Of a DNA stretch of 64,000 bases, positions 20,861 through 44,863 are shown in pieces. Both the position numbers and the translations under genes were made by a program. Source of the DNA: Candidatus Spongiisociaceae bacterium. Its GTDB lineage: Bacteria; Actinomycetota; Acidimicrobiia; Spongiisociales; Spongiisociaceae. The notes beneath the pieces are model-generated. The model did not search any database. It saw only the letters and a program-made list of their open reading frames with translations, and had not been told where the DNA came from. The stretch is from NCBI GenBank assembly GCA_965202665.1, contig OZ241841.1:736001-800000 (forward strand). The letters are read 5' to 3'. Every line of letters starts with the position of its first letter. Position 1 is the stretch's first letter.

Positions 20861-22141
20861 CTAGGGGAGTCGTTCTATCCGGGCCCCGAGGGCGGCGAGG
20901 CGGCCGTCGATGTTTTCATATCCCCGCTCGATCTGCTCCACGCGGTCGATGCGGCTTTGGCCTTCGGCGGCCAGGGCGGCTATCAGCAGGGCCATCCCCG
21001 CCCGGATGTCGGGGCTGGCCAGCGGGCTGGCCCGCAACGGGGTGGGGCCCAGCACCATCACCCGGTGCGGGTCGCACAGCACGACGCGGGCCCCCATCCC
21101 GATCAGGCGGTCCACGAAGAACATCCGCGATTCGAACATTTTCTCGTGAATCATTATGGAACCGGTGGCTTGGGTGGCGGCCACCACCGCGATGCTGGTC
21201 AGGTCGGCCGGGAAGGACGGCCACGGCCCGTCCTCAATTTTGGGCACCGCGTCCCCCAGGTCGGGGGAGACCATCAGGTTCTGATGAGCGCAGACCAGGG
21301 CGCTCCCGTCCGGTTGCAGGTGATAGTTGATGCCCAGGCGCTCCCAAGCCAAATCGATGGGCTTTATCTCATCGGGACGGATCCCCCCGATGGTGATTTC
21401 GGAGTCGGTTACGGCCGCCAGCACGATCATGCTGCCGATTTCGATATGGTCGGGGACGATTTCGTGTTCGCCGCCGCTCAACGACTCCACTCCTTCAACG
21501 GTGAGAATGTTGCTGCCGATGCCGGTGATGCGGGCCCCCAGGCTGTTGAGGAAATGACACAGGTCTTGAATGTGCGGCTCGCAGGCCGCGTTCTGAATGA
21601 CGGTGGTTCCCTTGGCTTTGGAGGCGGCCATAATCAGATTTTCGGTGGCGGTGACCGACGGTTCGTCCAAAAACACATCGGCGCCGAGGAGGGACTCCGC
21701 TTTGAAAGAATGTCCGTACGAGAAGTCGTAGCGGGCGCCGATGGCGGTCAGGCCGCGCACATGGGTGTCAATGCGACGGCGGCCGATCACATCCCCGCCG
21801 GGGGGCGGAATGGTTACTTCCCCAAACCGGGCCAGCAACGGTCCGGCCAGCAAAATGGAAGCCCGGATCACCCCCGCCAGCTTCGCCGACACCACCGGCG
21901 ATTCCACGTTCCCGGCGTCGATGACGATGGTCCCCCCGCCCCGGCGCTCCACCGTCGCCCCCATTTCTTCCAGAATGGCCAGCAAGGATTCCACATCCCC
22001 GATCATCGGCACGTTGCGCAAAGTGACCGGCCCCTCCGCCAGCAGGCAACCGGCGATAATGGGCAAGGCGGCGTTCTTGTTCCCCACCGGCTGAAAATGC
22101 CCGCTCAACCGAGCCGGCCCCTTAACCAAAAAACTAGACAT
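20861..22141 (-). CDS. murA: UDP-N-acetylglucosamine 1-carboxyvinyltransferase
   Basis: GNKNAALP, PGGDVIGRR (Asp at the fosfomycin-target Cys position), DIRAG and IERGYE. Confidence 0.95.
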   Translation of the reverse strand: MSSFLVKGPARLSGHFQPVGNKNAALPIIAGCLLAEGPVTLRNVPMIGDVESLLAILEEMGATVERRGGGTIVIDAGNVESPVVSAKLAGVIRASILLAGPLLARFGEVTIPPPGGDVIGRRRIDTHVRGLTAIGARYDFSYGHSFKAESLLGADVFLDEPSVTATENLIMAASKAKGTTVIQNAACEPHIQDLCHFLNSLGARITGIGSNILTVEGVESLSGGEHEIVPDHIEIGSMIVLAAVTDSEITIGGIRPDEIKPIDLAWERLGINYHLQPDGSALVCAHQNLMVSPDLGDAVPKIEDGPWPSFPADLTSIAVVAATQATGSIMIHEKMFESRMFFVDRLIGMGARVVLCDPHRVMVLGPTPLRASPLASPDIRAGMALLIAALAAEGQSRIDRVEQIERGYENIDGRLAALGARIERLP

Positions 22142-23976
22142 CAGCCACTCCCTAAGCCCAACTTGTCAGGATCCCATATTCTTTCACAAATCTGACGATA
22201 CAGGTCCTGACGTTCCTCTATATCAGACTTTGTAAAACCATCAGGATAAGGCTTAAATGGCAAACCGGTCTCCTCCATAAACCCACTAAAAGAAGGGTTA
22301 TTTTCATAAGCGAGTGGATGCAAAGATCGTGCCAATAAGTTCTGACTGTTATAGTGTTCTACCTTTTCTTCATATTTCTTTGCCCCATAACTCGCATTAA
22401 AATCCTTAGGTAGAAGGAGTAACGCCCCAAACCGGTTCCGGTAGCGAGCAAAGTCATCTGGGTTATCGAACTCATCCATATGTCGATCATATTTGTTCGC
22501 CCAAATGTGCTCCACCTCATATGGATTCTTGCGTTGCCAATCCACATACTCAGCAAATCTATCAGTATCTCCACACTCTGATTCAATCCAAGCAGTCATA
22601 CGGGATAACAAATATTTGATACGCGAGCGATTCTGACCATGAAGACCATAATCTTTCATAGTATCAAAAGAATCCGAAAGTTTAGCGACTTCCTCAGCCA
22701 AAATAACTCGTAAATTATTGGGCTCTTTATTACGGACATTCTTACTCAAAATAAACATATGGTAAACAATAGTCGAATAACCATAATTTCTATTATTGAC
22801 TATACGTCTTGCAATATAGAGATCAATATAACTAGCGACTAAACGAGTCTTTTGCTTAAAGATCTCTTCATCATCGTCTGGCGTAACAGTAGCTAAAATA
22901 GGTAGATATTGAAGAGTAATACCTACCGTGGCATTGTAAAATACATGCTCAAAGCCAGGTGTTAATGTCCAACTGGCCTTCAGGAGCTGTTTATAACGAT
23001 GACTCATTTGCACAAAATCACGGTTGATAAAACTCTTATAGTCGCTGGAATGATGAAGTCCTATCCTTTCATTATTATCCCGAACCCACTTGTGGAAGGC
23101 AGTACCAATGATATCAAAATCGCCCGAAACTGCATCCTTTTTACGTTCCCGAATAGTATCAGCATATTGCCCTCGAAGCCAATGCTTTAGAAAATCTGAG
23201 TCTGCATTCTTGTCAAGATCAGATAATTCAGTAATACGGTTACGCCATATCTGATTGGCTTTCTCAATTTGCTGAGAATCCTCAATTCTATTCAATAAAA
23301 GTCCCTTTAACATATCCGTATTAGATAAACGCATGCCGCGGTCATTCATAGTTTCAAATACTTCCAAAGCCATTTCCTGATCAGCTGTACCAATTTCCAC
23401 TAATACAACCATCTCTAGTAGCCAATCAATAAAATATGCTAGAGGTTCACCCTTTAGTTCTTCGGGAAAATGCTCCACTATATTCTGAGATTGCTCCCAA
23501 ATATTACGAATGGATTGGGGTTTTCCATCAGAATCAAAGAATGAAGAGCCATCCAAAATAGCAAACATAACTTCTTTACGCTCATCCACATCTATATTGA
23601 ACGTACGAGATCCAAACCGCTGTGAATAAACAAAGTTCTTCACACTTTCCGTATCTTCCGCCTCTTTAGACAAGTGCTCAAGATGGATTAACAGCAAGGT
23701 TAATGTTGTAAGCCGCTGTTGTCCATCTATTATATAACGAGTTCCTTCAGAGAGATTGGTAATTATTGGTCCGAGGAAGTAGTAACGATAAGAAGCGACC
23801 TTGTGCCTCTCATCATCCTTCACATATTCGCCCAGAAAACGGGTAGCGAGATCATCCAGCAACTCAACCACATTGGACTCCGTCCAAGTGTATTCACGCT
23901 GGTAGTACTCTATTCCATACTTACGGCCCGTGAACAACTCACGCAAAGTCCTCACCGTACCATCTAAATCCGACAT
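22141..23976 (-). CDS. DUF262 + DUF1524 protein (GmrSD/SspE-like modification-dependent restriction endonuclease)
   Basis: YQREYTW, IDGQQRLTT, FETMNDRG and a C-terminal EHI...GALLLL...N HNH-like motif; markedly AT-rich. Confidence 0.85.
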   Translation of the reverse strand: MSDLDGTVRTLRELFTGRKYGIEYYQREYTWTESNVVELLDDLATRFLGEYVKDDERHKVASYRYYFLGPIITNLSEGTRYIIDGQQRLTTLTLLLIHLEHLSKEAEDTESVKNFVYSQRFGSRTFNIDVDERKEVMFAILDGSSFFDSDGKPQSIRNIWEQSQNIVEHFPEELKGEPLAYFIDWLLEMVVLVEIGTADQEMALEVFETMNDRGMRLSNTDMLKGLLLNRIEDSQQIEKANQIWRNRITELSDLDKNADSDFLKHWLRGQYADTIRERKKDAVSGDFDIIGTAFHKWVRDNNERIGLHHSSDYKSFINRDFVQMSHRYKQLLKASWTLTPGFEHVFYNATVGITLQYLPILATVTPDDDEEIFKQKTRLVASYIDLYIARRIVNNRNYGYSTIVYHMFILSKNVRNKEPNNLRVILAEEVAKLSDSFDTMKDYGLHGQNRSRIKYLLSRMTAWIESECGDTDRFAEYVDWQRKNPYEVEHIWANKYDRHMDEFDNPDDFARYRNRFGALLLLPKDFNASYGAKKYEEKVEHYNSQNLLARSLHPLAYENNPSFSGFMEETGLPFKPYPDGFTKSDIEERQDLYRQICERIWDPDKLGLGSG

Positions 23977-23983
23977 AATCTAC

Positions 23984-25336
23984 CTATCGAAACAGAACTT
24001 CCAAGTCATCAGGATTATGATCGAAGTATTTCAATAAATACCTGGCGAACTCTGGAATCTTTTTCCCCCCCCAAGTAGAAACAAAATATTTTGAGTTTCC
24101 AATTCTTCGGGGGTTCCTCACCTCTGCCTCGTTGTTCGATATTAGCACCCTACCTCCGCTAGATGCAATTTGCCCAAATTCATTTGAGTAAATTGCATGT
24201 AAATATTTAGCTACATTTTCCATAACATCCGCCCAATATTTAATATTCATACCCTCACCAGCCAACAGCATACCTGTAGGTTTACTAGTTAGTTGATTGA
24301 CTAGTTGTGAAGATCTCGTCCTTATCTTTAAATCTGAACGATGGTAACCAAAATGCTCTAGTAATCGATAAGAATCCTCTATTAGATGCTTTGCCGCCTT
24401 TTTGATCTTGAAATAAATATCTGTGGATCCAGCTCGATAATAGTCTCTAGACTGCTTTCGATCAAGATTACGTTTAATGCTTCCGATTGTGGTTATTGTA
24501 TCAAAAGCAGTCTCGTTTCTAGCAACAAGACCATCTATAACGCATCTAAGCACATCTGTATTGCTCCGAACGGATTGCTCTTTTCCCCATAAACTTATTT
24601 TAGATGGTTTAGAAAAACTTTGCAAGGGTTTATCCTTTTTAGTTCCAGATTCATGAGTCCGTGGTAAACTTGTTACCGGAGATACTGAGGTTCCTATGAG
24701 GACAGAAGTTACTTGTTTGCTGGTGGGACGGAGATTAGTTTTTTCATATACGCGTTTGCTTACCAGTTCAATCAGCTCCTCGTCGTGGTCGGTTAGCATC
24801 CCGCGCCAGATGGCGGGGACCTCTTTGTCCAAGTGTTCGGCCTCCCGGCGGGCTTTTAGGACCTGCTTGGCCTTTTTCACCGCCTCTCCGTTCACTAGCG
24901 GCTCTCGTCCGAGGAAGGCCTCGAAATCCACAGCCAACTGCTCTACTGGGTCTTTTTTGAGACGCAACTCGGCGAAACGGCGCTCTGGGAACAGATAATC
25001 CGTCTCAGCTGGCAGGTACAGCCACCACTCCAAGCCGGTAGTCAACGCGCAAATGTTCGCCCCCTCTTGGAAGGCGTAGTTGAGGACCTGCTCAACATGA
25101 TCGTCCAAGCTATGGCCGGGAGCCTTCGCTTCGATGAAAGCGGCTACCCCCCTTGGCCCTTTCAAGGCGGCATCCACCCGGCCTTTGCTCCGGCCCACCG
25201 AGTACTCCCAATGGACGTCGTAGGTCTGCCAGCCCAAGTCCTGCAGAATGGGCACCAGAATCCACATCTTGGCCGTCTCTTCGTTGGCTGGTGCAGATAG
25301 CGTGCGGATGGTTTCCAGAGTTTCGCGGAGGGGCAT
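23984..25336 (-). CDS. HsdR-N-terminal-like PD-(D/E)XK nuclease with two tandem C-terminal DNA-binding-like domains
   Basis: NEETAK..ILQDLGW..EY..VDAAL..IEAK..QVLNYA..LTTGLEW; duplicated SKP...LLxxF..xxDL C-terminal module. Confidence 0.7.
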   Translation of the reverse strand: MPLRETLETIRTLSAPANEETAKMWILVPILQDLGWQTYDVHWEYSVGRSKGRVDAALKGPRGVAAFIEAKAPGHSLDDHVEQVLNYAFQEGANICALTTGLEWWLYLPAETDYLFPERRFAELRLKKDPVEQLAVDFEAFLGREPLVNGEAVKKAKQVLKARREAEHLDKEVPAIWRGMLTDHDEELIELVSKRVYEKTNLRPTSKQVTSVLIGTSVSPVTSLPRTHESGTKKDKPLQSFSKPSKISLWGKEQSVRSNTDVLRCVIDGLVARNETAFDTITTIGSIKRNLDRKQSRDYYRAGSTDIYFKIKKAAKHLIEDSYRLLEHFGYHRSDLKIRTRSSQLVNQLTSKPTGMLLAGEGMNIKYWADVMENVAKYLHAIYSNEFGQIASSGGRVLISNNEAEVRNPRRIGNSKYFVSTWGGKKIPEFARYLLKYFDHNPDDLEVLFR

Positions 25337-25413: not shown

Positions 25414-27180
25414 ATGAGCGTAATGTCCGATCTCAGCGCCGCCCTGGGGGCCGCGTTCGCCGAGTTGGGGTTTGACCCGGCGTACGGGTCGACGGTGGCC
25501 TCCAACCGGCCCGACTTGGGGCAGTTCCAATGCAACGGGGCCCTGCCCGCCGCCAAAACCGCCGGGCGCAACCCCCGGGAAGTGGCCGAACAGGTCGTAA
25601 CCCGCCTCGCCGGCGACCACCGGCTGGCGGAAGCGTCCGTGGCCGGGCCGGGTTTCATCAACCTGGCGCTCACCGACGCCGCCCTGGCCAAATATGCGAA
25701 CCGGTTGGCGGCCGACCCGGAGCGGGTGGGGGCGCCGCTGGTGGAAACGCCCCTCAGCGTGGTAGTGGACTACGCCGGGCCCAACGTGGCCAAAGCCATG
25801 CACGTCGGGCACCTGCGCTCCACCATCATCGGCGACAGCCTGAAACGGCTGTTCCGCTTCCAAGGGCATCGGGTGTGGGGGGACGCCCACTTCGGGGACT
25901 GGGGACTGCAGATGGGGATGTTGATCGTGGCCGCCCGGCAACGGCTCCCCCATCTCCCCTACTTCGACCCCGGCAGCTCCGGCCCCTACCCCGCCGAACC
26001 CCCGGTCGCCCTGGCCGACCTGCAGGAATGGTATCCGCAAATAGCCGCCGCCGTGGAACAGGACGAGGAAACGGCGGACGCCGCCCGGCAGGCCACCGGC
26101 GAACTGCAGGCGGGCCGCCCCGGGTACCTGGCCCTGTGGAAACATTTCGTGGAAGTGTCCCGCCGCTCCCAGAAACAGGACTTCGCCGACCTGGGCGTGG
26201 AATTCGACCTGTGGTACGGGGAAAGCGATGTGCGGGACCGCCTCGCCCCCCTGGTGGAACGCGCCTTGGGCGAAGGGGCCGTCCGGGAACCCGACGGGGC
26301 GGTGGTCATAGAAGTGTCGGAACTGGACGACAAAACCGAAATCCCCCCGCTGGTCATCCAAACCTCGCGCGGGGCCTACCTCTACTCCACCACCGACTTG
26401 GCCACCATCGGGCATCGCACCGAAGAGTTGGGGGCCGACCTGATCCTGTACGTGGTGGACGCCCGCCAGTCCCACCATTTCACCCAAGTGTTCCGGGCGG
26501 CCCGCCGCATCGGGATGGCGGGCCGAACCCGAATGGAGCACATCCCGTTCGGGACGATGAACGGCAAAAACGGCAAGCCGTACAAAACCAGGACCGGGGA
26601 GGTGCTGGCCTTGCAGGACCTTATCCAACTGGTGGCCGATGAAGCCCGCCGCCGCCTGGACGAATCGGACTTGGCAGCCGGCTACCCGCCTGCGGAAAGA
26701 GACGAAATCGCCCGCCAGGTCGGTTTGGCCGCCCTCAAATTCGGGGACTTGATCAATAACCGGGCCTCCAACTACATTTTCCAACCGAAGCGGTTCACTT
26801 CCCTGGAAGGCAAAACGGGCCCCTACCTGCAGATGGCAGCGGTGCGGATGGCCTCCATCCTGGCCAAAGCGGCCGACCGCGACCTGGAGGCGGGAACCGT
26901 AACCGCCCCCGCCGTCGACCCGGAACGGCGCCTGTGGCTGCATCTGCTGGCCCTGCCGGAAACCATCAACCGGGCGGCGGAACTGCGGGCCCCCAACCAA
27001 ATAGCCGAATACGCCTACGACCTGGCCGCCCTGTTCAGCTCCTTCTACGAAACCTGCCACATACTGACCGAACCCGACCCGGAGCAACGCGCCTCCTGGC
27101 TGAGCCTGACATCCGTCGTCCGCCGCGCCCTGGAACTGTTGCTGGACCTGCTGGGAATCGAAATACCCGCCCGGATGTAA
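25414..27180 (+). CDS. argS: Arginine--tRNA ligase
   Basis: PNVAKAMHVGHLRSTIIG, GDWGLQMG, EGKTGPYLQ and C-terminal LLGIEIPARM. Confidence 0.95.
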   Translation: MSVMSDLSAALGAAFAELGFDPAYGSTVASNRPDLGQFQCNGALPAAKTAGRNPREVAEQVVTRLAGDHRLAEASVAGPGFINLALTDAALAKYANRLAADPERVGAPLVETPLSVVVDYAGPNVAKAMHVGHLRSTIIGDSLKRLFRFQGHRVWGDAHFGDWGLQMGMLIVAARQRLPHLPYFDPGSSGPYPAEPPVALADLQEWYPQIAAAVEQDEETADAARQATGELQAGRPGYLALWKHFVEVSRRSQKQDFADLGVEFDLWYGESDVRDRLAPLVERALGEGAVREPDGAVVIEVSELDDKTEIPPLVIQTSRGAYLYSTTDLATIGHRTEELGADLILYVVDARQSHHFTQVFRAARRIGMAGRTRMEHIPFGTMNGKNGKPYKTRTGEVLALQDLIQLVADEARRRLDESDLAAGYPPAERDEIARQVGLAALKFGDLINNRASNYIFQPKRFTSLEGKTGPYLQMAAVRMASILAKAADRDLEAGTVTAPAVDPERRLWLHLLALPETINRAAELRAPNQIAEYAYDLAALFSSFYETCHILTEPDPEQRASWLSLTSVVRRALELLLDLLGIEIPARM

Positions 27181-27195
27181 CCATCCGCCCAGCCG

Positions 27196-27858
27196 TCACG
27201 CCCACTCCGGCGGACGGCGATATTCCTGCCCATTATCCCCCGTCACCACCTCCGGCAACTGCGATCTCCCAAAAGCGCCCTTGGGAAAATGAGCCACGCC
27301 CGAAGCCGCTTTTTTTAAAGTAGCCACCTGCCGGCCGGGAGGAGGAGTGACGATCACCTCCTTCCCCAACCTGCCCACCACATGCTTCACCGCTGGTACA
27401 AAGTCGGCGTCGCCGCTCATCAAAAACGCTTTTTCGTATAACCCCTCATACGCATCGGCCACCATGTTTACGCCGAGAGCGACGTCGGTCATCTTCTCCT
27501 GGGTGCGTCTATCCGGGCGTTTGTACTCCAGGCAACGGAGTATGTCACCGCAGTACGAGCAGTGCTGAGGCGCCCTCATGGCGAACTTTCCGTAAATCAC
27601 CTCCACACCCGCGTGCGAGGTAAGAGCTCCCAGGTAGATTGCCTGGCGAGTGTTCGAGTCTTGGGGTCCGCGCCGCCTGGCAGTGAAATACTTAACCGCC
27701 GCCAGAACTTCTCCCGGTTCCAGGAGCTTGGCGAACAACGCCCGCAAATCAAGCCAGAAGAACCTTCGCCAGCCTTTGGACTTCAATCCGTAGTAGACGT
27801 TGTACCCATCCACGTACCCGACAACAGGGGATGGACTTGACAGGTTTGTATTGGTCAT
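27196..27858 (-). CDS. NYN domain (LabA/DUF88, PIN-like) ribonuclease
   Basis: YVDGYNVYYG, EKMTDV and SGDADFVP catalytic acidic motifs; TAAGGAG RBS. Confidence 0.85.
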   Translation of the reverse strand: MTNTNLSSPSPVVGYVDGYNVYYGLKSKGWRRFFWLDLRALFAKLLEPGEVLAAVKYFTARRRGPQDSNTRQAIYLGALTSHAGVEVIYGKFAMRAPQHCSYCGDILRCLEYKRPDRRTQEKMTDVALGVNMVADAYEGLYEKAFLMSGDADFVPAVKHVVGRLGKEVIVTPPPGRQVATLKKAASGVAHFPKGAFGRSQLPEVVTGDNGQEYRRPPEWA

Positions 27859-28055
27859 CTATGCTTCTCCTTAGAACTGCGCCATAGGTATATCCTGTGG
27901 TCAAAACGGCCCGCCATTCGTGGCGGGTCGTTTCTATGTGGGGTCGCACCAACCTTGGCCTCAAAGCCGCCGCAACGGTTCCGGGCCGGGATGTAACCTT
28001 CTTGTGACCCCTTGCGCTTGATTATAGGGTCGGACCAGGTCATACCTGGTACACC
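27859..28055 (-). ncRNA. Putative structured leader/sRNA upstream of the NYN gene (copy 1)
   Basis: Minus strand: TATAAT at 28026-28021, GGGGTC...GACCCC closing stem, terminator-like hairpin 27903-27933, second hairpin 27882-27900, palindrome ACCAGGT-CAT-ACCTGGT near 28035. Confidence 0.55.
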
Positions 28056-28084
28056 GCGACAGAGCACGGTCGGGCGTAAGCGGG

Positions 28085-28798
28085 CGGGGTGGATCAGAGG
28101 GGGAGGGGGGCGGTAGGGCCAGATGAAACCGGCCAGCCAGGGGCCGTACAGCAGGGCCGGAGCGTGCTCCCACCAACGGGGAGGGGCGAATTGCCGCACC
28201 AGCCACAGCAAAGGAACCCCCGCCGCCAGAGCCCGCCGACGCTCCGCTCCGGGCCATCAGGGACAACTGATCGGGAATCAAGCCGAACAGGTCGGAGAAA
28301 GAAACCAGGCGCCGGGCGAACCCGGCTATCGGAATGGCCGGTTGAACCCAAATGGAGCACATCCAGTTCGGGACGATGAGCGGCAAAAACGGCAAGCCGC
28401 ACAAAACCAGAGCCGGGCATCTGCTGGCCCGGCCGGAAACCATCGAACGGGCGGCGGAACCGCGGGCCCCCAACCAAATAGCCGAATACGCCTACGACCT
28501 GGCCGCCCTGTTCAGATCCTTCTTCGAAATACCCGCCCGGATGTAACCATCCGCCCAGCCGTCACGCCCACTCCGGCGGGCGGCGATATTCCCGCCCTTT
28601 GGCCCCTGTCACCACCTCCGGCAACTGCGACCTCCCAAAAGCGCCCTGGGGAAAATGAACCACGCCCGAAGCCGCCCTTTAAAGTAGCCACCTGCCGGCC
28701 GGGAGGAGGAGTGACGATCACCGCAATCCGTAGTAGACGTTATACCCATCCACATACCCGACAACAGGGGATGGACTTGACAGGTTTGTATTGGTCAT
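28085..28798. pseudogene. Amplified unit copy 2: membrane-gene 3' fragment, deleted argS 3' fragment and internally deleted NYN
   Basis: 28085-28328 matches 44860-45098; 28329-28546 is spliced pieces of argS (about 26510-26600, 26940-27050, 27160-27180); 28562-28798 is both ends of NYN without the middle. Confidence 0.85.
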
Positions 28799-29020
28799 CT
28801 ATGCTTCTCCTTAGAACTGCGCCACGGGTATATCCCGTGGTTAAAACGGCCCGCCATTCGTGGCGGGTCGTTTCTATGCAGGGTCTTACCAACCTCGGCC
28901 CCAAAGCCGCCGCAACGGTTCCGGGCCCGGGATGTAACCTTCTTGTGACCCCTTGCGCTCAAATATAGGGTAGGGCCAGGTCAACCAGTTACACCGCGAC
29001 AGAGCACGGTCGGTCGTAAG
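28799..29020 (-). ncRNA. NYN leader copy 2
   Basis: Near-identical to 27859-28080 with the terminator hairpin identical (28843-28873); the -10 box and upstream palindrome are degraded. Confidence 0.5.
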
Positions 29021-30196
29021 CGGGCGGGTGGATTAGAGGGGGGCGGTAGAGCCAGATGAAACCGGCCAGCCAAGCCGCGTACAGCAGGGCCGGGGAGCGC
29101 TCCCGCCAGCGGAGGGGCGATCGGAGAAAGAAACCAGGCGCCGGGCGAACCCGGGCTAAGAACCCCGCCACCGGCGCGAACACCACCAGCCCCACCGCGG
29201 TGGCCGCCGCCGACTCCCAAGCTTTGGTTCCTTCAACGTGATCCGAGGCGCGCGGGCCGCTCTCCACCGCCAACCCCAACAGAAAAGTTCCCAGCAGGGC
29301 GGTCACCAAACCGGACGACAAACCGAAATCCCCCCGCTGGTCATCCAAACCTCGCGCGGGCCTACCTCTACTCCACCACCGACCTGGCCACTATCGGGCA
29401 TCGCACCGAAGAGTCGGGGGCCGACCTGTTCACCCAAGTGTTCCGTACGGCCCGTCGCGTCGGAATGGCCGGTCGAACCCAAATGGAGCACATCCAGTTC
29501 GGGACGATGAACGGAAAAAACGGCAAGCCGTACAAGACCAGGGCCGGGGATCTGCTTGCTTTGCCGGAAACCATCAACCGGGCGGCGGAACTGCGGGCCC
29601 CCAACCAAATAGCCGAATACGCCTACGACCTGGCCACCCTGTTTAGCTCCTTCTACGAAACTACCACATACTGACCGAACCGACCCGGAGCAACGCGCCA
29701 CCTGGCTGAGCCTGACAACCATCGTCCGCCGCGCCCTGGAACTGTTGCTGGACCTGCTGGGAATCGAAATACCCGCCCGGATGTAACCATCCGCCCAGCC
29801 GTCACACCCACTCCGGAGGACGGCGATATTCTTTCCCATTGTCCCCCGTCACCACCTCCGGCAACTGCGATCTCCCAAAAGCGCCCTGGGGAAAATGAGC
29901 CACGCCCGAAGCCACTTTGATTAGAGCATCCGACCGTCGGTTGGGAGGAGGAGTGACGATCACCTCCTTCCCCAACCTGCCCACCACGTGCTTCACCGCT
30001 GGTATAAAGTCGGCCTGGCAGTGAAATACTTAACCGCTGCCAGAACTTCTCCCGGTTCTAGGAGCTCGGAGAGCAACGCCCGCAAATCAAGCCAGAAGAA
30101 CCTTCGCCAGCCTTTAGACTGCAATCCGTAGTAGACGTTGTAACCATCCACATACCCGACAACGGGAGATCGATTTGACAGGATTGTATTGGTCAT
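29021..30196. pseudogene. Amplified unit copy 3: membrane-gene fragment, argS 3' fragment (29313-29786) and internally deleted NYN (29802-30196)
   Basis: Direct matches to 44860-45261, 26325-27180 and 27196-27858 with deletions and frameshifts. Confidence 0.85.
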
Positions 30197-30420
30197 CTAT
30201 GCTTCTCCTTAGAACTGCGCCATAGGTATATCCTATGGTCAAAACGGCCCGCCATTCGTGGCGGGTCGTTTCTATGCAGGGTCTTACCAACCTTGGCCTC
30301 AAAGCCGCCGCAACGGTTCCGGGCCGGGATGTAACCTTCTTGTGACCCCTTGCGGCTTGATTATAGGGTCGGACCAGGTCATACCTGGTACATCGCGACA
30401 GAGCACGGTCGGGCGTAAGC
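30197..30420 (-). ncRNA. NYN leader copy 3
   Basis: TATAAT, palindrome and terminator hairpin (30241-30271) all intact. Confidence 0.5.
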
Positions 30421-30604
30421 GGGCGGGTTGAGTCAAAGGGGGAGGGGGGCGGTAGGGCCAGATGAAACCGGCCAGCCAGGGGCCGTACAGCAGGGCCGGG
30501 GCGCGCCCCCGCCAACGGGGAGGGGCGAATTGCCGCACCAGCCACAGCAAAGGAACCCCCGCCGCCCAGAGCCCGCCGACGCTCCGCTCCGGGCCGTCAG
30601 GGAC
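30413..30604. repeat. About 190-bp direct repeat, left flank of the giant-gene cassette
   Basis: Matches 44844-45035 (GCGTAAGCGGG...GGGCCGTCAGGGAC). Confidence 0.85.
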
Positions 30605-30737
30605 GCCGCTTCCGGCAAAACTGCGAACTCATAAAGGGCTCCCGCTAGTGCGGAATCGGGTGCTGGTGTTGCCCTACTTTGGGAGAAAAAATATCCCGGC
30701 CCCTGGGTTGGGCAGAGGCCGGGATAGGTTGGGGTGG

Positions 30738-33700
30738 TTATGAACTTGCGCCTGCGGCGTCGTCGGTGGTGGTGGGGGCTTGGTTGATTACTCTTACGAA
30801 GAAGGATGCCATCTGCGCCCGGGTCACCGGATTGTTGGGGCAGTATCTGAGGGGCGGCGTGGTGGTGCATCCTCTGGTTACTTCGCTTTCGGCTATGCCT
30901 TCAATGGCCCGCACCACCGCCGCGTCCAGGTTGGCGGTGTCGGCAAACAGGTTTTGCGACTCGGATACGGCTTGGATGTGGGGGAAAGCGGCTACCATCA
31001 TCACCGCCATATCGGCTCGGGTTACTATCCCTCGGGGGTTGAAGTTCCCACCGTCCAGCTGGAAGGCCCCGATGCTTACCAGCCAGTCGGCGTAGGAACG
31101 GTAGCTGGCGTCGGCGGGGACATCGGCTATTTCTATGCCGGTGGGGAACTGGATGGGCCAGCGGGGATTGACTGCCCGGTAGATGAAAGTGGCCATTTGC
31201 CGACGGGTGATTTGCGCGCTGGGACAGTATTTAGTGGAGTCGTTGGCGTCGCATCCGATGGTTATTCCCCATACGGCCATCAACTCGATGTTGTCTTCGT
31301 GGACGCTGCCGTCATCGTCGCAGAACCGTCCCTGGCAGGCCACCGGCGCGGGCGGCGGCGCCACCGGCGGGGCGGGACCGGCAGGCGGCGGGGCCCCTCC
31401 ACCGGCCGCGGGGGGCGGAGCGCCGCCGCCGCCTCCTCCTCCACCACCGCCTCCACCGCCTCCACCTCCGGCCGCGGGGGGTGGGGCTGGAGCTGGGGCG
31501 CCACCGCCTCCGCCGCCTCCTCCGCCGCCCCCTCCACCTCCTCCGCCGCCGCCGGTGGGGGTGGTGGTGACAGCGGGGGCGTCGTTGGCGGGGATGGTGA
31601 TAGTGGTGGCGGTGGCGGTGAATCCGGTAACGTCGCCGGGGGTTATGCGAATTTGTTTGGCGTTCTCCTGGGTGGGGTCGTCGTTTATTCGCATGTCTAT
31701 ATCAATGTATCCGCTGGTTTGGCCGGCGCGGATGGTGATGGTGTGGGTCCCGGGGCCGGGTTCGTAAGATTCTCCGGTTCCCAGGGTGACGGGAACTTGC
31801 ATGTCTTGGGTGAGCGCGACTGAGCCGAGGGAGGCGGTGATGCGTACTCTTGCGGATGCGCCTTCGTTTATTCGGTTGGGGCTGGCGGATAGGGTTATGC
31901 GGTTGGGTTGGGCGTCGTTTTCGGTGATGGTGAAGGTGACGGGTCTGACGGTGAACTGGGAGTGCGATCCGGTTAGTTCCAGGGTTTCGTTGCCTTCGTA
32001 GACGCGGTCGTCGGGGGTGAGGTTGAGGGTGATGTTGGTGGTGGCGTAGTTGGTGTTGGCGGGGATTCTGATATCGAACGGGGCCAGCGTTTGGTAGTCT
32101 TCTCCGGCGGTGGCGGTTCCGTTGTTTACGGTTACTCGGATGGTTTTCTGAGCGGTTTGGGTGACGCCGGCCGAGAAGGCGGCTTTCACGGTAACATTTT
32201 GGCGGGTTCCTTCGGCGGCTTGGGCGACATCCAGGGAGAGGGTTACGGCGCTTTCGTCGTCGACGAGGGTTAGGGTGTCTTCACCGACGGTGAAGGCGGT
32301 CAGGGTGTCGTCGGGGTCGCCTCGTACGGTGATCGTTTCGGGGCTCTCAGGGTCATCGTCGTCGATGGCTTCTAGATCGAAGCGGGCGGTTCCTTGCGTT
32401 TGGTAGGCGGGGATGGTAATGGAAGGGGGCGAGGTTACGTCCTTGTAGTCCGTGTCGGGTATGGCAGTGTCGCCGACTTTGGCTACTCCCAGGGGGACGA
32501 TCACCGAGTGGGGCAGAGTGTTGGTACCCTGGTAGGCGGCTTTTACGACCACCGGAGTGGTGGCTGTTGTTTCGAATATTTGGGCGAGGTCGGCCCCGCC
32601 GGGGGTTTGCAGGGTGATGGTTATTTCATCGGGGGCTTGGTCGTCGTCGGTGATGTTCAGGTTGGCTCCTATAACCGGCAGGGTGGATCCGCCCAGCGTC
32701 AGGGTCCCGCCTTCGATGTGGATAGTTTCCGGGTCGGCCCCTTCCGACGCTCCCTCGGCGGTGTTGTCGTCGTTTACCTGCAAGGTTACCGTCGCGTGGC
32801 CGCTGGTTTCCCCGGCGGAGATAGCGACGGCTAGGTCGTATCCGGCGGGCGGGGCGGGACTGGTGGGCAGGGTGATGCGGTAATCTTCCCCGGTTCCGAA
32901 ACCGGTGGAGGCGGCGGCGGGGGCGGCGGTGCCGTTGGCGATGTTCACTCCTATGACGGCGCCTCCGGCGGGGGCTACCACGGGTATGGAGGCGGTTATG
33001 CGCAGGGTGGTGGTTCCGCTGTCCTCCGCGATGGCGGTCAGGGGGGTTCCGGTGTTGTTGGCCCAGCCCAGAGTCACGCCTTGGTCGACGATTTCCAACC
33101 GGGCGGCGGTAGCGGTCACCGCAGAGCCGTCTACCTGCGCGGTAGCGGTGAGGGAAACCCGTTCGGTGGATTCCCCTGTGCTGTCAGCGCGGGCGACAAT
33201 GCGGAAGGTGGCTGCGCCGCTGGTCCGTCCGGCGGGGATGTTCACCGTCAGCTGCCGGTTGGAAGGCAGGTTGGTGTACCAGTCGTTGCTGGTGCCGTGG
33301 GTGGCGGTGTCATCGGCGAGGGTGACCGTCACCGGAACAGCCGCAGTACGGGCGGAAGAGGCTACGTTGTCGAAGGCGGCGGTGACGGTCACAATGTAAT
33401 GGTTGGGTCTTTCCACCAGCAGATCGGGGGTAGCGCTGATGGTGAGGGCGGTGTCGGCGTCGGCGACCGCCAACACCGCGGAAGCAGCGGCGCCCAAAGC
33501 GGAGGTTCCGCTGATAATGATCGTCTCCCGCCCTTCGGTTATATCATCATGTTTCACAGTCAGCCCAGTCAGGGCCGTTCCGGCGGCAGCGCCGGTCGCT
33601 TGGGCGGGGATGGTCACGGTGTACGTTCCGCTGTTTTGATAGTCGGCGGGACTGACCGCCGTTCCGTCCCCCACGGTGAGCGTCACCGCGGTGGCGGTGG

Positions 33701-36700
33701 CGATTTCGGAGGAGGTGGTCCCGGTTTGGAAAGCGGCCGACACGGTAATCCCCGACCCAGTTCCGCCTTCCGCCGCCGCCGCGCTGGCGGTTAGGACTAT
33801 CACCGAGTCGTCGTCTTGAATAGTCAGCGAGGCGGGAGTAACCGACAGACCGGGGGTGGTTCCCCCCACTTGGATGGTTTCCCCCACCTCGGCGATAGCG
33901 TCATCGGTTATACCCAAACCGGTCAGAGCGGTGGAGGAACTGCTGACCGAGCCAGCCGGGATGGTCACCGTTATCTCACTGCCGGCCCCGGGAGCGGTGT
34001 AATCAGCCGCTTCCGTACCAGCCCCCGCCGCGAACGACAACGTTACGACGGTGGCGACCCCGATCTGGGAGGTGGTTCCCGCCAAAGAGGCGGTCACCCG
34101 GGCCGCTCTCCCGTCGCCGTCTTCTTCCAACGCGTCGGCGGTTACGTTCAGAGTTATACCGGAGTCGTTGTCGGTGATATCAAAAGCGGTGTCCACCACC
34201 GCCAGCACGCTCCCGCTCGCCACCGCCCCATCCACGGATATCGTCTCCGCCGCCCCCTCCGCCGCCCGGTCGTCGTTCACCGCCACCACAATATCCGCCC
34301 AACCGCTGACCCGCCCCGCGGGAATGGAAATCCCCATCCCGTAACCCGCCGGCGGGGAACCCTGCGGATAAGAAACCCGAAAATCCTCCCCCGCCCCGAA
34401 CATACTGTCATCATCCAAAGTGGCGGACCCGCCCGTCACGTTCACCCCCACCACCACCGGCGTACTCGACGCGACCGGGAGGGTGGCGGTTACCCGCACG
34501 GTGGTGGAACCGCTGTCCTCCCCCAACCCGGTCAACGCCGACCCACCGCTACTCACCGACAACTCAATGCCCCGATCCACCACGTTCACCACAGCCGACT
34601 CCACATCCACCGCCAAACCCCCCACCATAGCCGAACCGCTCACGGTCAAAGCCTCGGCCCCCTCGGCGACGTTGTCGTCGCGGGCGGTCAACTGGAACGT
34701 TCCGTTAGCCGACAACGACCCCGCCGGAATAGTAACCGTAAACTGGTTGCCCGTCTTATCCGTACAAGCATCCCCCGACGCCTGCGGACACGGCGCAGCC
34801 GCCAACGCCGCGCCCCCCGACGCGCCCGCCACCTGTACCGCCACATCCACCGCCTCCGTCAACACGGTACTGGAACCTTTGAAACGGGCGGTAACCGTAA
34901 TCGTCTGCGCCCCCGCGCCTTCCGCCACCAACGATGGAGACACCGACAAATCCACATCCACGTCATCATCCCCAATAGTCACCGTCGCCGCCGTAACCGC
35001 CCCCAACGAAGACGTCCCGTTCACCAAAAACGTTTCCGGGCCCTCCACGATCGTGTCATCAACGATTGTCAATCCGGTTAGCGTGGCCGGAACCAACGAA
35101 TAAGAAACAAGCCTATCAGGAGTCCCAGGGGGGGTCGCCATTGGGTCGCTGCCGTCGCCGTCATGGTCAACCTCTGTACCCGGAATGGTGAAAGAATTCG
35201 GCGACGACGGCGCATACGAGAAATCAGCCGCAACCGCCTTCCCCGCCCCCGGAGTCTCCACCGCCGTCGACAAAGCCACCACCACATCCGAACCTACCTC
35301 GTTGACCGTACCCGACCGGAAACTCCCCGACACCGACACCGAACCAGAACCGCCCTCCCAAATCACCGTCTGATCCCCATCAACATCCCCATCAGTATCC
35401 ACCTGCAAAGCAACCCGAGTATCGTATTCGTCCACAATACTGATAATCCCCGCAACAACAGTAAAACCCGCCGGCTCAGCCACCACCACCTCTATCGTCT
35501 CCACCGCCTCCGCCACCGGGCCATACCTATACACCTGCAAAGTGCTAAAAGCCGAAGCAGCCAACGTAGCAGACAAAGAACCAGCCGGAATAGACACCAA
35601 CACCTGACCTAAATTACCATTCCAACGCCAATCACAGCTCACTAACGGACACGGCCCAGTATAATCCAACGCCGTCCCCTCCCGCATCGTCACCCGCAAA
35701 TTGTTCAAACCGGCACTGTAAGCAGAAGCCGTCGAAGCAGTGAACACCCCACCAGACACACCCCCCAAATCAGCTCTAAAACCCACCTGATGAGTAGTAT
35801 AACTGAAACCACCAGGTAAGGGCTCCGTGTACCGATCAACCAAAGGAGACACCCGAATAAACCGATCCTGATCCGCAATCCCCAAACCAGCCGCCACCAC
35901 CCCATACCCAGCAACAGAACCAGTAAACCATATCATCTCCCGATTCTCAGTGATGGTATCCGACAGGGGCGTTATGGTCACATCCGCCGAACCACTCGTG
36001 CCCTGCGCGGGAATAGTAATCGTCGCCGTAGCCGAACTACGAGTGAAATCAGTGTTCAACAGCGCGTCGCCGCCCGACGCGCCCACCATCACCGTTACGT
36101 TCACCGGGGATGCGCCCACCGCCGCCGAAGCAGTAGCCGTTATCCGCACCGTCTGCGCACCGCCATCCTCTTCTACCTCGGTCAACGCGGCCGGGGTTTG
36201 CGCGGTATCAGTCAAAGTGAGCGTGATCGCCTTATCCGCGTCGCGGACCGTCATCGCCGTCCCCGTCACCTCCACCGCCGCCCCCCCCACCGCGGCTGAG
36301 CCTGAAATCGTCAGGCCTTCTTCGTCGTCGGCGGTGGAGTCCTCCCGGGCGGTCAACTGAAAAGAACCGCTCCCCAGCAACTGCCCGGCCGGGATAGTAA
36401 CCGTAAACTGATTGCTCGTTTTGTCGGTACACACATCATCCCCGGTCTGCGGACACACCGCCGACGACACCACCGCCCCACCCGACGACGCCGCCGCAAC
36501 AGTCACCGTCACAGCAGTATCCGCAGTCAACACCGAGCTGGTCCCCGCGAAACGGGCGGTAACCGTAATCGTCTGCGCCCCCGACCCCTCCGCTACCACC
36601 GCCGGGAACACCGACAACGAAATATCAGCATCATCATCGGCGATAACCAACTCCCCCGAAACGGGATGCCCGGCACCCAGACTGGAAGTACCGCCAAACG

Positions 36701-39700
36701 CTATCGTCTCCGGACCCTCCACAATCGAATCATCCACCACCGACAAACCCGCCAACGTCCCCGAAGAACTCTTCAACCCAGACACACCCACCACCGGAGG
36801 CGTAGCCATAAGATCCTCCGCCACCTTAACAGGAATGGTAAACGACAGCGGCGACGGCGGAGCGTAATCAAAATCGGCGTCGCCCGCCTCCCCCGCCTCC
36901 GGTTCCGTATCTTCTTCGATAGTAAGAGTGGCCGTGACCGGCGTCGTGTGACGGGTAGCGGTGACTCCGGAGGGCCATCCCGCCCATACTTCCACTCCTG
37001 TGCCGGAAGCACCCTCCGCTATTTCGGTCTGGTTGCCCATAGTGTTGCCGTCGGTGTCCACCCTGAACACCACCCGCGAATCCGTCACGTCCCGCACCTT
37101 AATCCAGGCTCTTTCCTGAGTGAACCCCGCTGGAAGCGTCCTCGCTCCCAGCCGTTTAATCGCCTCATCCGGATCCGCTGTGTTGTTTACCTCGACGGAA
37201 TGTGATATGTCTTGCGAAGCGGTGAGTGAACCAGACGGAATATTAAAATATTTCCTCAAATAAAACAAATAACTTTCCCAGTCATATACGTGATATCTAG
37301 CAATAGTTCTAGTATTTTGGCTATTGCCAGAACCTTCAGGGGACCACGCCTGCAAATTCATATTGGAACTGTAAGTAGAGGACGTGGAAGGAGTGAACAC
37401 GCCGCCGGAGGTGCCTCCTAAAGTAGCGGTGCCATCCGAAACAACCGAGCTACGGCGGGAAGCCCACTCGTCAATCGTGTCCGGGTTCAAAGTGAACTTG
37501 ATAACCCGGTCTTGGTCGATGATCTGTAGATCGGCTGGTACTACCGCATACCCCGTAGCGGCGCCCGCGAAGCGGATAGTTTCGTGATCTTCAGTGACCC
37601 TGTCCTGCACGGGGGTGATGGTTACGTCGGCGGTTCCGCTGGTGTCATTCGCCGCGATGGTCACCGTTGCCTCCCCGGCGCTGCGTAGATAGTCCCCTAG
37701 CGTTCCCAAGGCGGCGGTGCCGCCTGTGGCGCCTACGGTGACTGTTACGTCGGTGTCGGCGGTGGGGGCCGTCCCGACGGTGGCCACCACCCGCACCGTC
37801 TGCGCGCCGCCGTCTTCTTCCACTGCGGTTAGCGCGGCGGGGGTTTGGGCGGTGTCAGTGAAACTCAACGTAATCGCCCGCCCCGGATCCCGCATCGACA
37901 TTTCGGTTCCGGTGACCGTAGCTGTTGCGCCGCCGACGGTGGCGGAGCCGGTTACCGTCAGTTTCTCATCATCGTCGGCGGTGGTGTCGTCGCGGGCGGT
38001 GAGCTGGAAAGTAGCGGCGCCGCTGGTTTCCCCGGCGGGGATGGTCACGGTCAGCTGGCTGCTGGTCAAACCGGTAACGCACACATCAGTGGTGGAGGAG
38101 GGGCAGGCGGCCAGGGTGGCACCGTTGCTGGACGCGGAAGCGACCGTCACCGTCACGTCGGTGGCGGCGGTCAGGGCGGAGGTGGTTCCCGCGAAAGCGG
38201 CGGTAACCGTTATCGTCTGCGTACCCGAGCCTTCCGCTACTGAGGCGGGGAACACTGACAGCGTGATGTCGTCGTCGTCGTCGACGATGGTTATAGTAGC
38301 GGGGGTGGCGTCGCCTAACGGGGAAGAACCGCTAATGGTAATCGTCTCCGGCCCTTCCACAATCGCGTCGTCGGTGACCGTCAACCCGGTTAGGGTGGCG
38401 GTGGCTGAGGGGGTGGCGTTGTTAGCGGGGAAAGTGATGGTATTGGGCGTGGCCGGGGTGTAGGTGAAGTCGGCGGCGACGGCCTTCCCGGCTCCGGCCG
38501 GGGTGGGGGCGGCGGCTGATAGGGTCACGTTGGTGGCGGAACTAATGACTGAGGTGGTGGCGTTGTAGTAAGCGGCGGAAACGGTCACACCGGAACCGGT
38601 AGCGCCTTCCGCCAGCGTGGTCTGGGTTCCCGTCGCGCTGTCAGTGTCCACGGTTATCGCTATCTGGTTGGAGTCTTGGATGGTGATCGTCTCCCTGACC
38701 GCGGTCCAACCGGAGGGAACGGCGGGACGGAAGTAAAATATCTGATCCGGTTCCGCCACCGTGTCCTTCAAAACAGCAACCACCGGAACCGCGGTGGGAG
38801 CGTACACTATATTCACATTACCGGAAAGGGCCCCCGCGTTTATAGTCACCTCCAGCGGGTCGTCCGCCTCGCCGTGCTCATGGAAGATATCGTCGGTAGT
38901 GCTAGTCTGGCCGCCCACGGTGGCCGTCCCCGCATCAACCCGCACCCGCATCCCCAAATTAGAACTGTAAGTAGAAGAGGTGGAGGGGGTGAACACCCCG
39001 CCCGACACCCCGCCCAAAACAGCCGTCATACCCCGGAAAAACTTGAGAATGCCATTATACTGGTTAGTCAACGCCTCCCCCTCCCTAGGCTCCCGCACCA
39101 CCAGATCCCCCTCCGCCGCCATCACCTTCACCGCCCGATCCTGATCCTGTATCACCAAATCATTCGCCACCACCGCATACCCAGTGGCTGAACCGGTGAA
39201 CCGGATAATCTCCAAGTCTTCGGTGATGGTATCCGACGCGGGGGTGATAGTCACATCCGCCGTCCCGCTGGTATCGTTGGCGGCGATCGTCACCGACACC
39301 CTATCCGCACTCGACGAATAATCCCCCGCCCCAGCCGTAGTACCCTCCGCCCCCACCACCACATCCACCACCACCGCCGACGTCGGCGCCACCGGCGCAG
39401 AAGCCACCACCCGAATCACTTTAGCCCCCCCATCCTCCCCCACATCCACCAACGGAACCGGCGTAGAAGCAGTGTCAGTAAAACTCAACGCGATGGACCG
39501 GCCCGGATCGTAAATCGTCAACTCCGTCCCCTCCACCACCGCCGCCTCCCCCCCGATAGCGGCCGCGCCGGATACGGTCAGGTCCTCGTCGTTGTCCGCC
39601 GCGTTGTCGCTACGGGCGGTCAGCATAAACGACCCAGACGCCTCAACGCTCCCCGCCGGGATGCTGATAGTGAACTGGTTGTTGGCCTGGTCGGTGCAAG

Positions 39701-42700
39701 CATCCTCAGAAGTAGCCGGACACGCCGCCGCCAACGTAGCCCCCAGTTGCGATCCCGCTATGGTGGCCGTCACCGCCGTCGCCGCGGTCAACGCGGAAGT
39801 TTCTCCCCGGAAACGGGCGGTCACCCCGATCCGCTGAGCGGCGGCCTGCTCCAACACCTCCGCCGGGGAAACCAGCACATCTATCACCGCGTCGTCGTCG
39901 ACGATAGCCAACGAACCCGACACCGCAACCCCGGACGCGTCCGTTCCGCCCAACGTCAACCGCTCGGGTCCTTCCACGCTGGCGTCGTTTGTGATAGTAA
40001 GACCAGGAATAGTGCCGCTTACTGAGGTGGAACCAGCCGGGATGGTCAACAACACCGGAGCAGGCGACGGATAAGAAAAATCAGCCGTCCCCGCACTATC
40101 AGCCCCCACCGACGTTAAAGACACCACCAGCGGGTCGGTCAACTCCGACGACCCCGCCGGCAAAAAGGCTTCCACGCCCACTGTTCCGTCTGCGTCCTCC
40201 GACACGCTCCCCCGCAACCCAGGACGGCTGTCATCATCCGTCACCGTCATCAACTGAGGATCCGCCCCGAAACCCGCCGGAAGGCTGGAAATGGTCATCT
40301 GATAAGTCTCATCCCCCTCCGCCACGTCATCCACGCAACTCACCAACTGCACCGTCGCCGTCCCCGACGTGGAACCAGCCGCGATGGTTATGAACTCCCA
40401 AGCGGTGGGCATGGTGTCCACCGCGAACCCATCCGACGAATAATCCTGATTATAAGTAGCCGTACCATCCACCGTCCGCACCCGCCCCCGCACATTACTA
40501 CCCAACGTCGAGGAGGTAGCCGCGGTGAACACCCCCTCCGCCGACAACCCACCCAGGCGGCCGGTCACCGTCCTGGAAAACGGAGCGGAAGTCATACACT
40601 GGCTGCGGGTGGCCCAGCCCGACTGCGGATCCCCACCCTCCCCGTACGACGCCTCCCCCTCCCCCACCCCTATCCCCACCGTTCGGTCCTGGTCGGTGAT
40701 TTCCAAATCAGCCCCCCGCACCGCATACCCCCCCGCCGAACCCCCGACGCGGATCGTCTCGTTCTCTTCTGATATGGTGTCCTCCAACGGGGTGACCGTC
40801 ACATCCACCGACCCGCTCGTCCCTCCCGACGGAATAGTGATCGTCGCCGGATCCGACTTTGCGTAATCCCCTCCCGTGCAAACCTCGTTCTGCCCCGACC
40901 CCGCGCACGACTGCGGATCAGCCGAACCCCCCGCCGCGCCCACCGTCACCGACACCACCGTCTCCGCCGACACCGCCGCCGGAGCAGTAGCCGTCACCCG
41001 CACCACCCGCGCCCCCCCGTCCTCCCCCACCGCCGTCAACGCCACAGGAGTTTGCGCGGTGTCGGTCAAAGACAAATCAATCGCCTGCCCCGGATCAAAC
41101 ACGCTAATCTCCGCGGACGCCACCGCCACCGCCGCGCCCCCCACCGACGCCGTCCCCGACAACACCAGCCCCTCTCCCCCCTCCGCGTTGCCGTCGTCCC
41201 GGGCGGTCAGCCGCAACGTCGCCGACCCGCTGGTGGCGCCCGCCGGGATGGACACCGTGAACTGATTATTGGTCTTGTCGGAACACACGTCTCCACTGGT
41301 CTGCGGACACACCGCCGACGACAACACCGCCCCACCCGACGCCGCGCTCGCCAACGTCACCGTCACATCAGTCGCCGCCGTCAAAACGGAACTGCTCCCC
41401 CTAAAAGCCGCCCTCACCGTGATCGCCTGCTCCCCGGCTCCTTCCAGCACCGACGACTCCGACACCGTCAAATCAATATCCGCATCATCATCCACAATCG
41501 TCACCGAACTATCCGCCGCCGACACCCCCGCCACCCCCGTAACCACCCCCGACAAAACAAACGTCTCCGGACCCTCCACCACACCATCATCCACCACCGC
41601 CAACCCCCCCAACGCCGCCGACCCCGACACACTATTAGCCGCCACCGAAACCGTGTTCGGGGAAGCGGGCGCATACGTGAAATCAACCGCCGACGCCACC
41701 CCCGCCCCCGGCGCACCCAACCCCGCAGACAAAACAACCGAAGTCGCCGACCCGATCGTAGACGAACCCGCCGAAAACGCCGCCACCCCCACCGCCCCCG
41801 ACAACGACTCCCCCTCCCGCAACGGCTGCACCCCAGTTGTTCCCCCATCAGCGTCTATCGACAGATTAAGCGCCGAATCCGGATCTGTGATATACACGTT
41901 GGGATTCGGCGACAAACTATAACCCGCTACCTGGCTGTTCCCCCACTCAAAACGGAAATCCTCCGTACCCTCCGCCTTATTATCAGCATAAAAGTTGAAA
42001 GGCCACGTCACCGACCCCGACACCGAACCAGCCGCGATGGAAATATCCCTAAAAGAAAAGCCAATCTGATAAAAATCATCTACATTGCCTTGATCGTCCT
42101 CCTGCGTCGCCGACTGGTCCCGAAAATACAACCGCGAAGTAAAACTACTGCTATGAGTGCTGGACGTCGACGGAACAAACACATTATCAACCATCTGCCC
42201 AAACCGGGCCGTCAACCGCATATCATTACGGGTATTGCCCGACGCAGGCTCCGCTACCGTCGACGGCGACACGCTCAAATCCACATACCGATCCCCATCA
42301 TTAATAGTCAACATCGCCGGAGCGACCACCCACTGCGAATTGGAGCGACCCCAAAACACCACCGACTCCCCATCCTCCGTCACCGTATCATCATACGTAG
42401 TGATCGTCACATCCCCCACCGTCGCCATCGAATCACTCGGCTCCATACGAACAGTCACCTCCCCCGTGCTCCGCCCGAAATCCCCCGTGCACACCCGGCT
42501 CTGACCCGAACCCGAACACGACCCCAACGTAGCCGAACCCCCCACCGAACCCGGCGTCACCCACACCACCCTCGAATACCGCGACTCCCACACCGACTGC
42601 CACGACCCGGCCATAGTAGCCCGCACCCGCACCGCCTTCCCAACCCCCTCCCCCACCGATGACAACCCCGCCTCCCCGGTCGCCGTCTCATGCAACGACA

Positions 42701-44105: not shown

Positions 44106-44194
44106 CACCAACCTCCAAACTCTCCAACGACGAACCAATACCAAACCCGCCGCCGCAACAGGCCACCGAACCCACACAGAGCCCAGCACCCAAA

Positions 44195-44222
44195 ACCCTA
44201 ACCCCCCCCCCCAATATGTCAA
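44195..44222 (-). promoter_or_regulatory. Sigma70/SigA promoter of the giant gene with a G11 tract in the -35/-10 spacer
   Basis: Minus strand TTGACA (44222-44217), TATT-G11-T (16 bp), TAGGGT (44200-44195). Confidence 0.7.
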
Positions 44223-44299
44223 ACCGCCGCCCACGCCCAGCCGCTGAAGCGGTTCTTCGCGTTTGAGGGGGGAGTAGGGGGTTGGGGGGTATTGAGGTG

Positions 44300-44826: not shown

Positions 44827-44863
44827 ACCAACCTCGGCCTCAAGCGTAAGCGGGCAGGTTGGA

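Follow-up and report, generated by a model that had tools for sequence, protein, structure and literature searches.

A structurally conserved small hairpin RNA predicted beside NYN ribonuclease genes persists after NYN loss and recurs in phages

The DNA analysed in this study, a 64,000-nucleotide stretch of a Candidatus Spongiisociaceae genome (the window), carries an intact argS gene for arginyl-tRNA synthetase (25414-27180, + strand) and, next to it on the opposite strand, an intact gene for a predicted RNase of 220 amino acids from the NYN/LabA-DUF88 class (27196-27858, - strand). The NYN protein lies above the PF01936 cut-off in a profile match and is matched along its length by the PADLOC model HEC-09 (E 3.5e-55), and its predicted structural model matches the NYN folds of 2qip and MARF1. 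Four aspartates, the acidic residues of the active site, are conserved: D17 and D152, each present in 75/76 aligned proteins, and D125 and D150, present in 76/76. No Abi_2 domain was found in a profile search of the window proteins. Just before argS, the region 22141-25336 (- strand) holds a GmrSD-like gene and a gene for a 450-aa protein with a weak HSDR_N match, so that the NYN unit is situated near other candidate defence genes.

The stretch comprising the 3' part of argS, the NYN gene and the sequence upstream of it is present as an original and two duplicates, and the duplicated pieces are backed by contigs of related sequencing runs from sponge and marine metagenomes. In the decayed part of copy 2 (28328-28798), pieces of argS are accompanied by what is left of the NYN gene (about 28562-28798, - strand), from which the equivalent of 27359-27783 is missing and whose frame ends after 26 codons. 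Copy 3 has decayed in a similar way (29309-30196): besides argS pieces, it has a NYN remnant (about 29802-30196, - strand) from which the counterpart of 27409-27674 is missing and whose frame ends after 67 codons. Multiple internal deletions mark the duplicated argS and NYN pieces (28260-30014), as they do the NYN remnants of relatives. The far flank of the unit occurs once more at 44844-45261 (+ strand), there lacking the RNA described below, and between this site and copy 3 is the gene for a repeat-rich 4498-aa surface protein (30738-44234, - strand), which ends in an SLH domain at its C terminus and shows a weak Calx-beta match.

Each of the three units contains a hairpin that had been reported in the original prediction: CCATAGG-TATAT-CCTGTGG in copy 1 (27882-27900), CCACGGG-TATAT-CCCGTGG in copy 2 (28822-28840) and CCATAGG-TATAT-CCTATGG in copy 3 (30220-30238), as re-reading of the sequence and alignment both agree. 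The hairpin is predicted to be the stem P1 of a small RNA of ~70 nt transcribed away from the NYN gene. In copy 1, a predicted sigma70-type promoter TTGACA-17-TATGCT (27837-27865, + strand) overlaps the NYN start codon on the opposite strand and is followed by the putative RNA (27872-27941, + strand, predicted ends), which is composed of a single-stranded 5' leader, P1 with one U·G pair, a 4-nt linker and an intrinsic-terminator-like hairpin with a U-rich tail (27905-27938). This terminator hairpin is the same in all three copies, in agreement with the original prediction. Despite NYN loss, promoter, P1 and terminator are all intact in copy 2 (28777-28881, + strand; promoter 28777-28805), whose P1 carries C-G and G-C pairs, and in copy 3 (30175-30279, + strand; promoter 30175-30203), whose P1 carries U-A and A-U pairs as in the relative G001. 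Only three promoter-like sites are found in 27100-30700, all of them TTGACA-17-TATGCT on the + strand and each 16 nt ahead of its hairpin, compared with 1.0±1.1 sites in shuffled sequences.

The + strand is also the strand on which the structure pairs. Read on the + strand, the odd P1 pair of copy 1 is a U·G wobble, whereas the NYN-sense strand has a C·A mismatch there, the wobble in the terminator likewise pairs on the + strand only, and the + strand folds better than the - strand in 3/3 copies (-34.8 versus -24.9 kcal/mol for copy 1). The terminator has U-rich tails on either strand, and an automated terminator scan with a U-tail rule did not call the + strand terminator. The original prediction had regarded the hairpins as part of a leader of the NYN mRNA, a role that is not supported: the structure is on the opposite strand, has its own predicted promoter, takes three positions relative to the gene and occurs in copies free of NYN, whereas a cis-regulatory 5' leader should share the strand of the mRNA and in every case precede the gene in the same direction. 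Two other candidates were rejected. Folding of the 167 nt presumed to be a minus-strand leader is no more stable than that of shuffled sequences (z=-1.87), and conservation in G001 does not extend to the distal part of this leader; a REP-like repeat does not agree with the whole-genome matches, which number only 4 in the genome of the window, all adjoining NYN genes or remnants.

Among the 19 nt of P1, copies 1 and 2 differ at 3 positions, copies 1 and 3 at 1, and copies 2 and 3 at 4. As originally noted, the last two differ at two whole pairs and both form perfect stems, which would have a chance of p=0.021 from the placement of four substitutions, or 0.002 if bases are equally likely. The three window copies alone are suggestive of selection on pairing; the wider family described below settles the question. 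The pairs concerned, 17-29 and 18-28, exist as a series of alleles in this lineage: UA+AU in copy 3 and in units 1 and 3 of G001, UG+AU in copy 1, UA+GU in unit 2 of G001, UA+GC in one contig of run X10, and CG+GC in copy 2. In run X1, an A>G change is seen at 30235, where copies 1 and 3 may have been collapsed into one.

To delineate the family, NYN loci were drawn from relatives, GTDB, metagenomes (the best 80 of 541) and viral contigs. A sequence-only profile, seeded from the same loci via their loop and terminator motifs and not requiring P1 pairing, detected the RNA at 73/80 of these best metagenome loci, and a covariance model added 4, giving 77/80. As for the three loci without a match, two end 76 and 127 nt upstream and the third is L052. 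The window copies were missed by the sequence-only profile and found by the covariance model, which had been built without them; they are its only significant matches in the window, all on the + strand (E 3e-6 to 2e-5). They are divergent members of the family that have kept the 19-nt P1 and have a different loop. The window lineage departs from the near-invariant loop residues G23 and A25, and given this departure its RNA specificity may differ.

The structure was then assessed in an alignment of 89 RNAs: the 3 from the window plus the 86, out of 91 distinct matches, that remained once 5 incomplete ones had been left out. P1 pairing reaches 99.0%, compared with 34-51% in slid controls, and two-sided changes occur at 7/7 P1 pairs, a level attained in 0/500 shuffles. 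The RNAalifold consensus gives the same two helices, G·U outnumbers A·C by 40:2 in P1 and by 85:5 in the terminator, and the top covarying columns are those of the two nested helices, with no pseudoknot signal found. On a quick NYN protein tree (76/82 loci, with 6 short or frameshifted proteins left out and many weak forks), at least 17 Watson-Crick swaps are counted at pair 16-30, at least 14 at 17-29 and at least 22 at 18-28, the latter two pairs being those that differ among the window copies. Covariation is thus present in the wider alignment, and the original reading stands in part: selection on RNA structure is strongly supported by the 89 homologues and by 14-22 independent Watson-Crick swaps, and the leader role is not supported.

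The family shares further features. A promoter score of at least 9/12 is reached ahead of 61/89 RNAs, whereas the opposite strand gives 4/89 and shuffled sequences 5±2, and in NYN-linked copies no ORF lies between promoter and terminator. The stem sequence is variable, the loop and flanks are conserved, and no variable guide segment is present. According to record titles, the hosts include Verrucomicrobia, Acidobacteria, Myxococcota, Hydrogenedentes, Planctomycetes and Actinobacteria, plus Thermus. In distant NYN clades with 26-36% identity (L007-L012, L022-L026, L038-L041, L134-L156), different promoter-hairpin-terminator units occur, several with a CUUCG-type loop, which the covariance model R2 does not detect. 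These units take the same three positions (upstream, divergent, downstream) at 28 loci judged by eye, and look like further RNA subfamilies.

The RNA is tied to HEC-09-type NYN genes in three orientations. For the nearest RNA at each of 82 NYN loci, the arrangement is divergent in 74, upstream and co-directional in 6, and downstream and convergent in 2. The co-directional loci form one clade with the order promoter-RNA-terminator-toxin, the terminator being just ahead of NYN. A promoter of the NYN gene itself was not found in the divergent loci. Arrays are also observed: in G001, the orthologous locus has 3 units and the paralogous locus 4, and in the window's genome the paralogue has 2; one array of promoter-RNA-terminator units lies at G000:C1:1983600-1983930 (L172). 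The arrays at L172, L021 and L002 have 2-4 units with varied spacers and P1 variants, each beside a single NYN gene.

Loss of the NYN gene with retention of the RNA extends beyond the window. A scan of 61 related genomes, which are kin and not independent, gave at least 22 RNA matches in at least 13 genomes, these counts being lower bounds since 80 candidates were scored per genome. Of 22 RNA matches, 9 adjoin an intact NYN gene, 8 a broken one, and 5 have no NYN within 1.5 kb; 15 and then 10 of the relatives' RNA loci were inspected. The RNA therefore outlives the NYN gene, as copies 2 and 3 of the window and the relatives keep RNA cassettes beside deleted NYN genes. In two relatives (L175, L176), promoterless RNA copies are situated right after tRNA-Ser(GGA).

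Viral sequences were searched with two RNA patterns that were not anchored on NYN and had the loop consensus built in. As a result, 42 loci were obtained, 40 of which match the covariance model (E<2e-9), and at the three P1 pairs on which the patterns put no constraint, pairing is seen in 70/78 cells (helix 1). Within the fetched locus, 39/40 viral copies are NYN-free, the exception being L202, and these 39 copies represent 25 clusters. Whole records were searched for 34 of the 40 copies, leaving out 6 near-duplicates; PF01936 is absent from 33/34 of these records, of which 29/34 are fragments less than 90% complete, and from 5/5 of those at least 90% complete. The neighbours of the phage copies are ordinary phage genes, no common partner gene being found among 53 proteins scanned. 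Directly after a co-directional stop codon lie 16/26 phage copies versus 7/85 NYN-linked copies, and a sigma70 promoter is found in 3/26 phage copies. In the range L191-L231, the genes whose stop codons precede viral copies include an SSB gene (phrog_224) and a baseplate wedge gene; one viral copy belongs to a group of ~270-kb phages, and the L231 copy follows a tRNA-like 3' end, as judged by eye. Terminator function alone could help to keep some of the NYN-free copies.

Two cultured phages also carry the RNA. The 178-kb Thermus phage phiLo (MH673673.1; L234:1375-1562) contains an unannotated 189-bp piece that is 96.8% identical to the NYN locus of the T. oshimai plasmid pTHEOS01 and includes the RNA, the consensus promoter and only about 22 NYN codons. 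The NYN locus is intact on the plasmid, NC_019387.1 (L236) being listed beside the phiLo piece, and the -10 box reads TATAAT in phiLo versus TTTAAT in the plasmid. Among 50,697 phage records, phiLo is the sole carrier of this piece; it has no NYN match, the 3 phage records that do have one being others. The Dolichospermum phage Dfl-JY45 (PP438435.1; L235:1495-1564) has an intergenic NYN-free copy (E 5e-15).

The NYN-partner RNA is apparently undescribed. No Rfam family reaches its gathering threshold in the window, and Rfam 15 at relaxed E-values gave only sub-threshold hits at 16 + 8 loci, the best being BjrC68 near the L101 RNA (29 bits against a cut-off of 39). No NYN-associated RNA is described in the literature searched, which covered papers open without subscription and Weinberg 2017 apart from its supplement. 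In their published descriptions, the ToxIN, CptIN and TenpIN systems (PMC12283969) are comparable in joining an endoribonuclease gene to a promoter-RNA-terminator cassette and in having tandem units; their order promoter-RNA-terminator-toxin is shared by only the one co-directional clade. Unlike type III systems, in which tandem pseudoknot repeats lie upstream, are co-transcribed with the toxin and are separated from it by a terminator, the NYN loci usually have one divergent unit with its own promoter, a simple hairpin without a detected pseudoknot, and a protein of NYN/PIN-like fold and not ToxN. [quoted passage not shown] The likeness is a small structured RNA adjoining a nuclease gene, whereas AbiF is a HEPN protein and the NYN-linked RNA has neither the abiF motif nor any Rfam 15 match. 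The mechanism likely resembles that of the ToxIN-type and AbiF RNA-antitoxin systems, the RNA-NYN pair being a member of neither.

For the phage copies, the closest precedent is phage PhiTE, for which a pseudo-ToxI and a hijacked ToxI are reported (PMC3475682, Blower 2012). Like PhiTE, phiLo carries a host RNA of this kind without the toxin, and its 189-bp capture looks like the same event; the NYN-linked RNA differs in occurring at about 25 separate loci in viruses, at most of which it is attached to the 3' end of a phage gene, mimicry by these copies being putative. Among RNAs of unknown function, DUF3800-I to -XI, drum and skipping-rope are described as terminator-ended and tied to one gene family (PMC5737381). 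They share the placement on either side and in either orientation of the partner gene, and differ in both the partner protein and the RNA. HEC-09 itself is described as a single gene, and the one representative tested failed to protect E. coli from any phage, toxicity on induction being noted for HEC-03 and HEC-04 only, and the main text of that report uses neither 'ncRNA' nor 'non-coding' (Payne et al., 10.1101/2024.01.29.577857).

We propose that the RNA probably binds and inhibits the NYN RNase in the manner of a type III antitoxin, that the pair would act in abortive defence or addiction, and that phages would supply decoys. A strong promoter would keep the RNA in excess, and NYN would contact the conserved 5' leader, the P1 loop and the P1-terminator junction; such binding to leader, loop and junction would leave the stem sequence free while fixing its 19-nt length and pairing. 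Infection that cuts the RNA supply would free the RNase and thereby be aborted. Promoterless copies in tandem arrays, behind tRNAs and behind phage stop codons would be released through processing. In the window, a tandem duplication copied the unit of the argS 3' part, NYN and RNA twice; both extra NYN genes lost internal parts, and both RNA cassettes stayed intact, evolving on under the pairing constraint. NYN loss with RNA retention and the NYN-free phage copies may be taken as indirect signs of a toxin-antitoxin role.

Several other explanations deserve consideration. The RNA might be a processing, stability or terminator module recognised by NYN, with a non-toxic NYN that cuts or binds P1 and phages that reuse the module as a 3' end. 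The frequent placement of phage copies after stop codons, mostly without a sigma70 promoter, the two chromosomal NYN-free copies after tRNA-Ser and the lack of defence by HEC-09 would all agree with this, which is nevertheless unlikely, because NYN-linked copies have their own promoter and no ORF ahead of the terminator, and because repeated NYN deletion with the RNA kept, promoter-RNA arrays and the phiLo capture, promoter included, would be left unexplained. Control of NYN expression by the RNA as a cis-acting leader, as an attenuator or in antisense is less likely still. The predicted 5' end of the window RNA does overlap the NYN Shine-Dalgarno region in antisense, and U-rich tails are present on both strands of the terminator, which in one clade lies just before NYN; however, the wobble pairs fit the + strand only, the orientation varies, G001 shows no conservation of the minus-strand sequence past the terminator, action in cis is not possible for phage copies or for detached and sequence-variant units, and antisense action needs no loop conserved across phyla.

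It is more doubtful again that NYN activity requires the RNA as a guide, activator or scaffold, as speculated for the DUF3800-linked RNAs. Its tie to one gene on either side and in either orientation and its 3' terminator recall DUF3800-I, drum and skipping-rope (Weinberg 2017), but an activator should decay after NYN loss and should not be gathered by phages, and a variable guide segment is absent from the family. Finally, changes at the DNA level, whether by template-switch correction of a quasi-palindrome (the alternative named in the original prediction), a cruciform or an operator, are very improbable and largely refuted, even though copies 2 and 3 and unit 1 of G001 are perfect inverted repeats. 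Template switching is disfavoured because the two pairs change separately, passing through a G·U intermediate, and because correction of a DNA palindrome would not produce the strand-asymmetric excess of G·U over A·C seen throughout the family. A free stem sequence with conserved loop and flanks is the opposite of an operator, and the position of the hairpin is fixed between promoter and terminator.

Under the proposed inhibition of NYN by its RNA, a wider picture may tentatively be drawn, in which a widespread, undescribed immune family of NYN/PIN-fold RNases is held by a hairpin RNA of ~60-70 nt, arrays of variant RNAs serve as a library that gives immunity to related NYN toxins, and phages routinely disarm the system via decoys on their own 3' ends or by capturing host cassettes. 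The large NYN/LabA-DUF88 class (COG1432) is listed as of unknown function (PMC5499597), and an RNA partner offers it a mechanism as well as a possible reason for the failed defence test of HEC-09. A cultured test system exists in the T. oshimai pTHEOS01 locus, T. thermophilus HB8 and phage phiLo. If the proposal is true, the PIN-like fold would join the ToxN-type and HEPN proteins among the toxins restrained by RNA antitoxins, and phage RNA mimicry would no longer be a rare example but a common way of countering defence that can be recognised from sequence.
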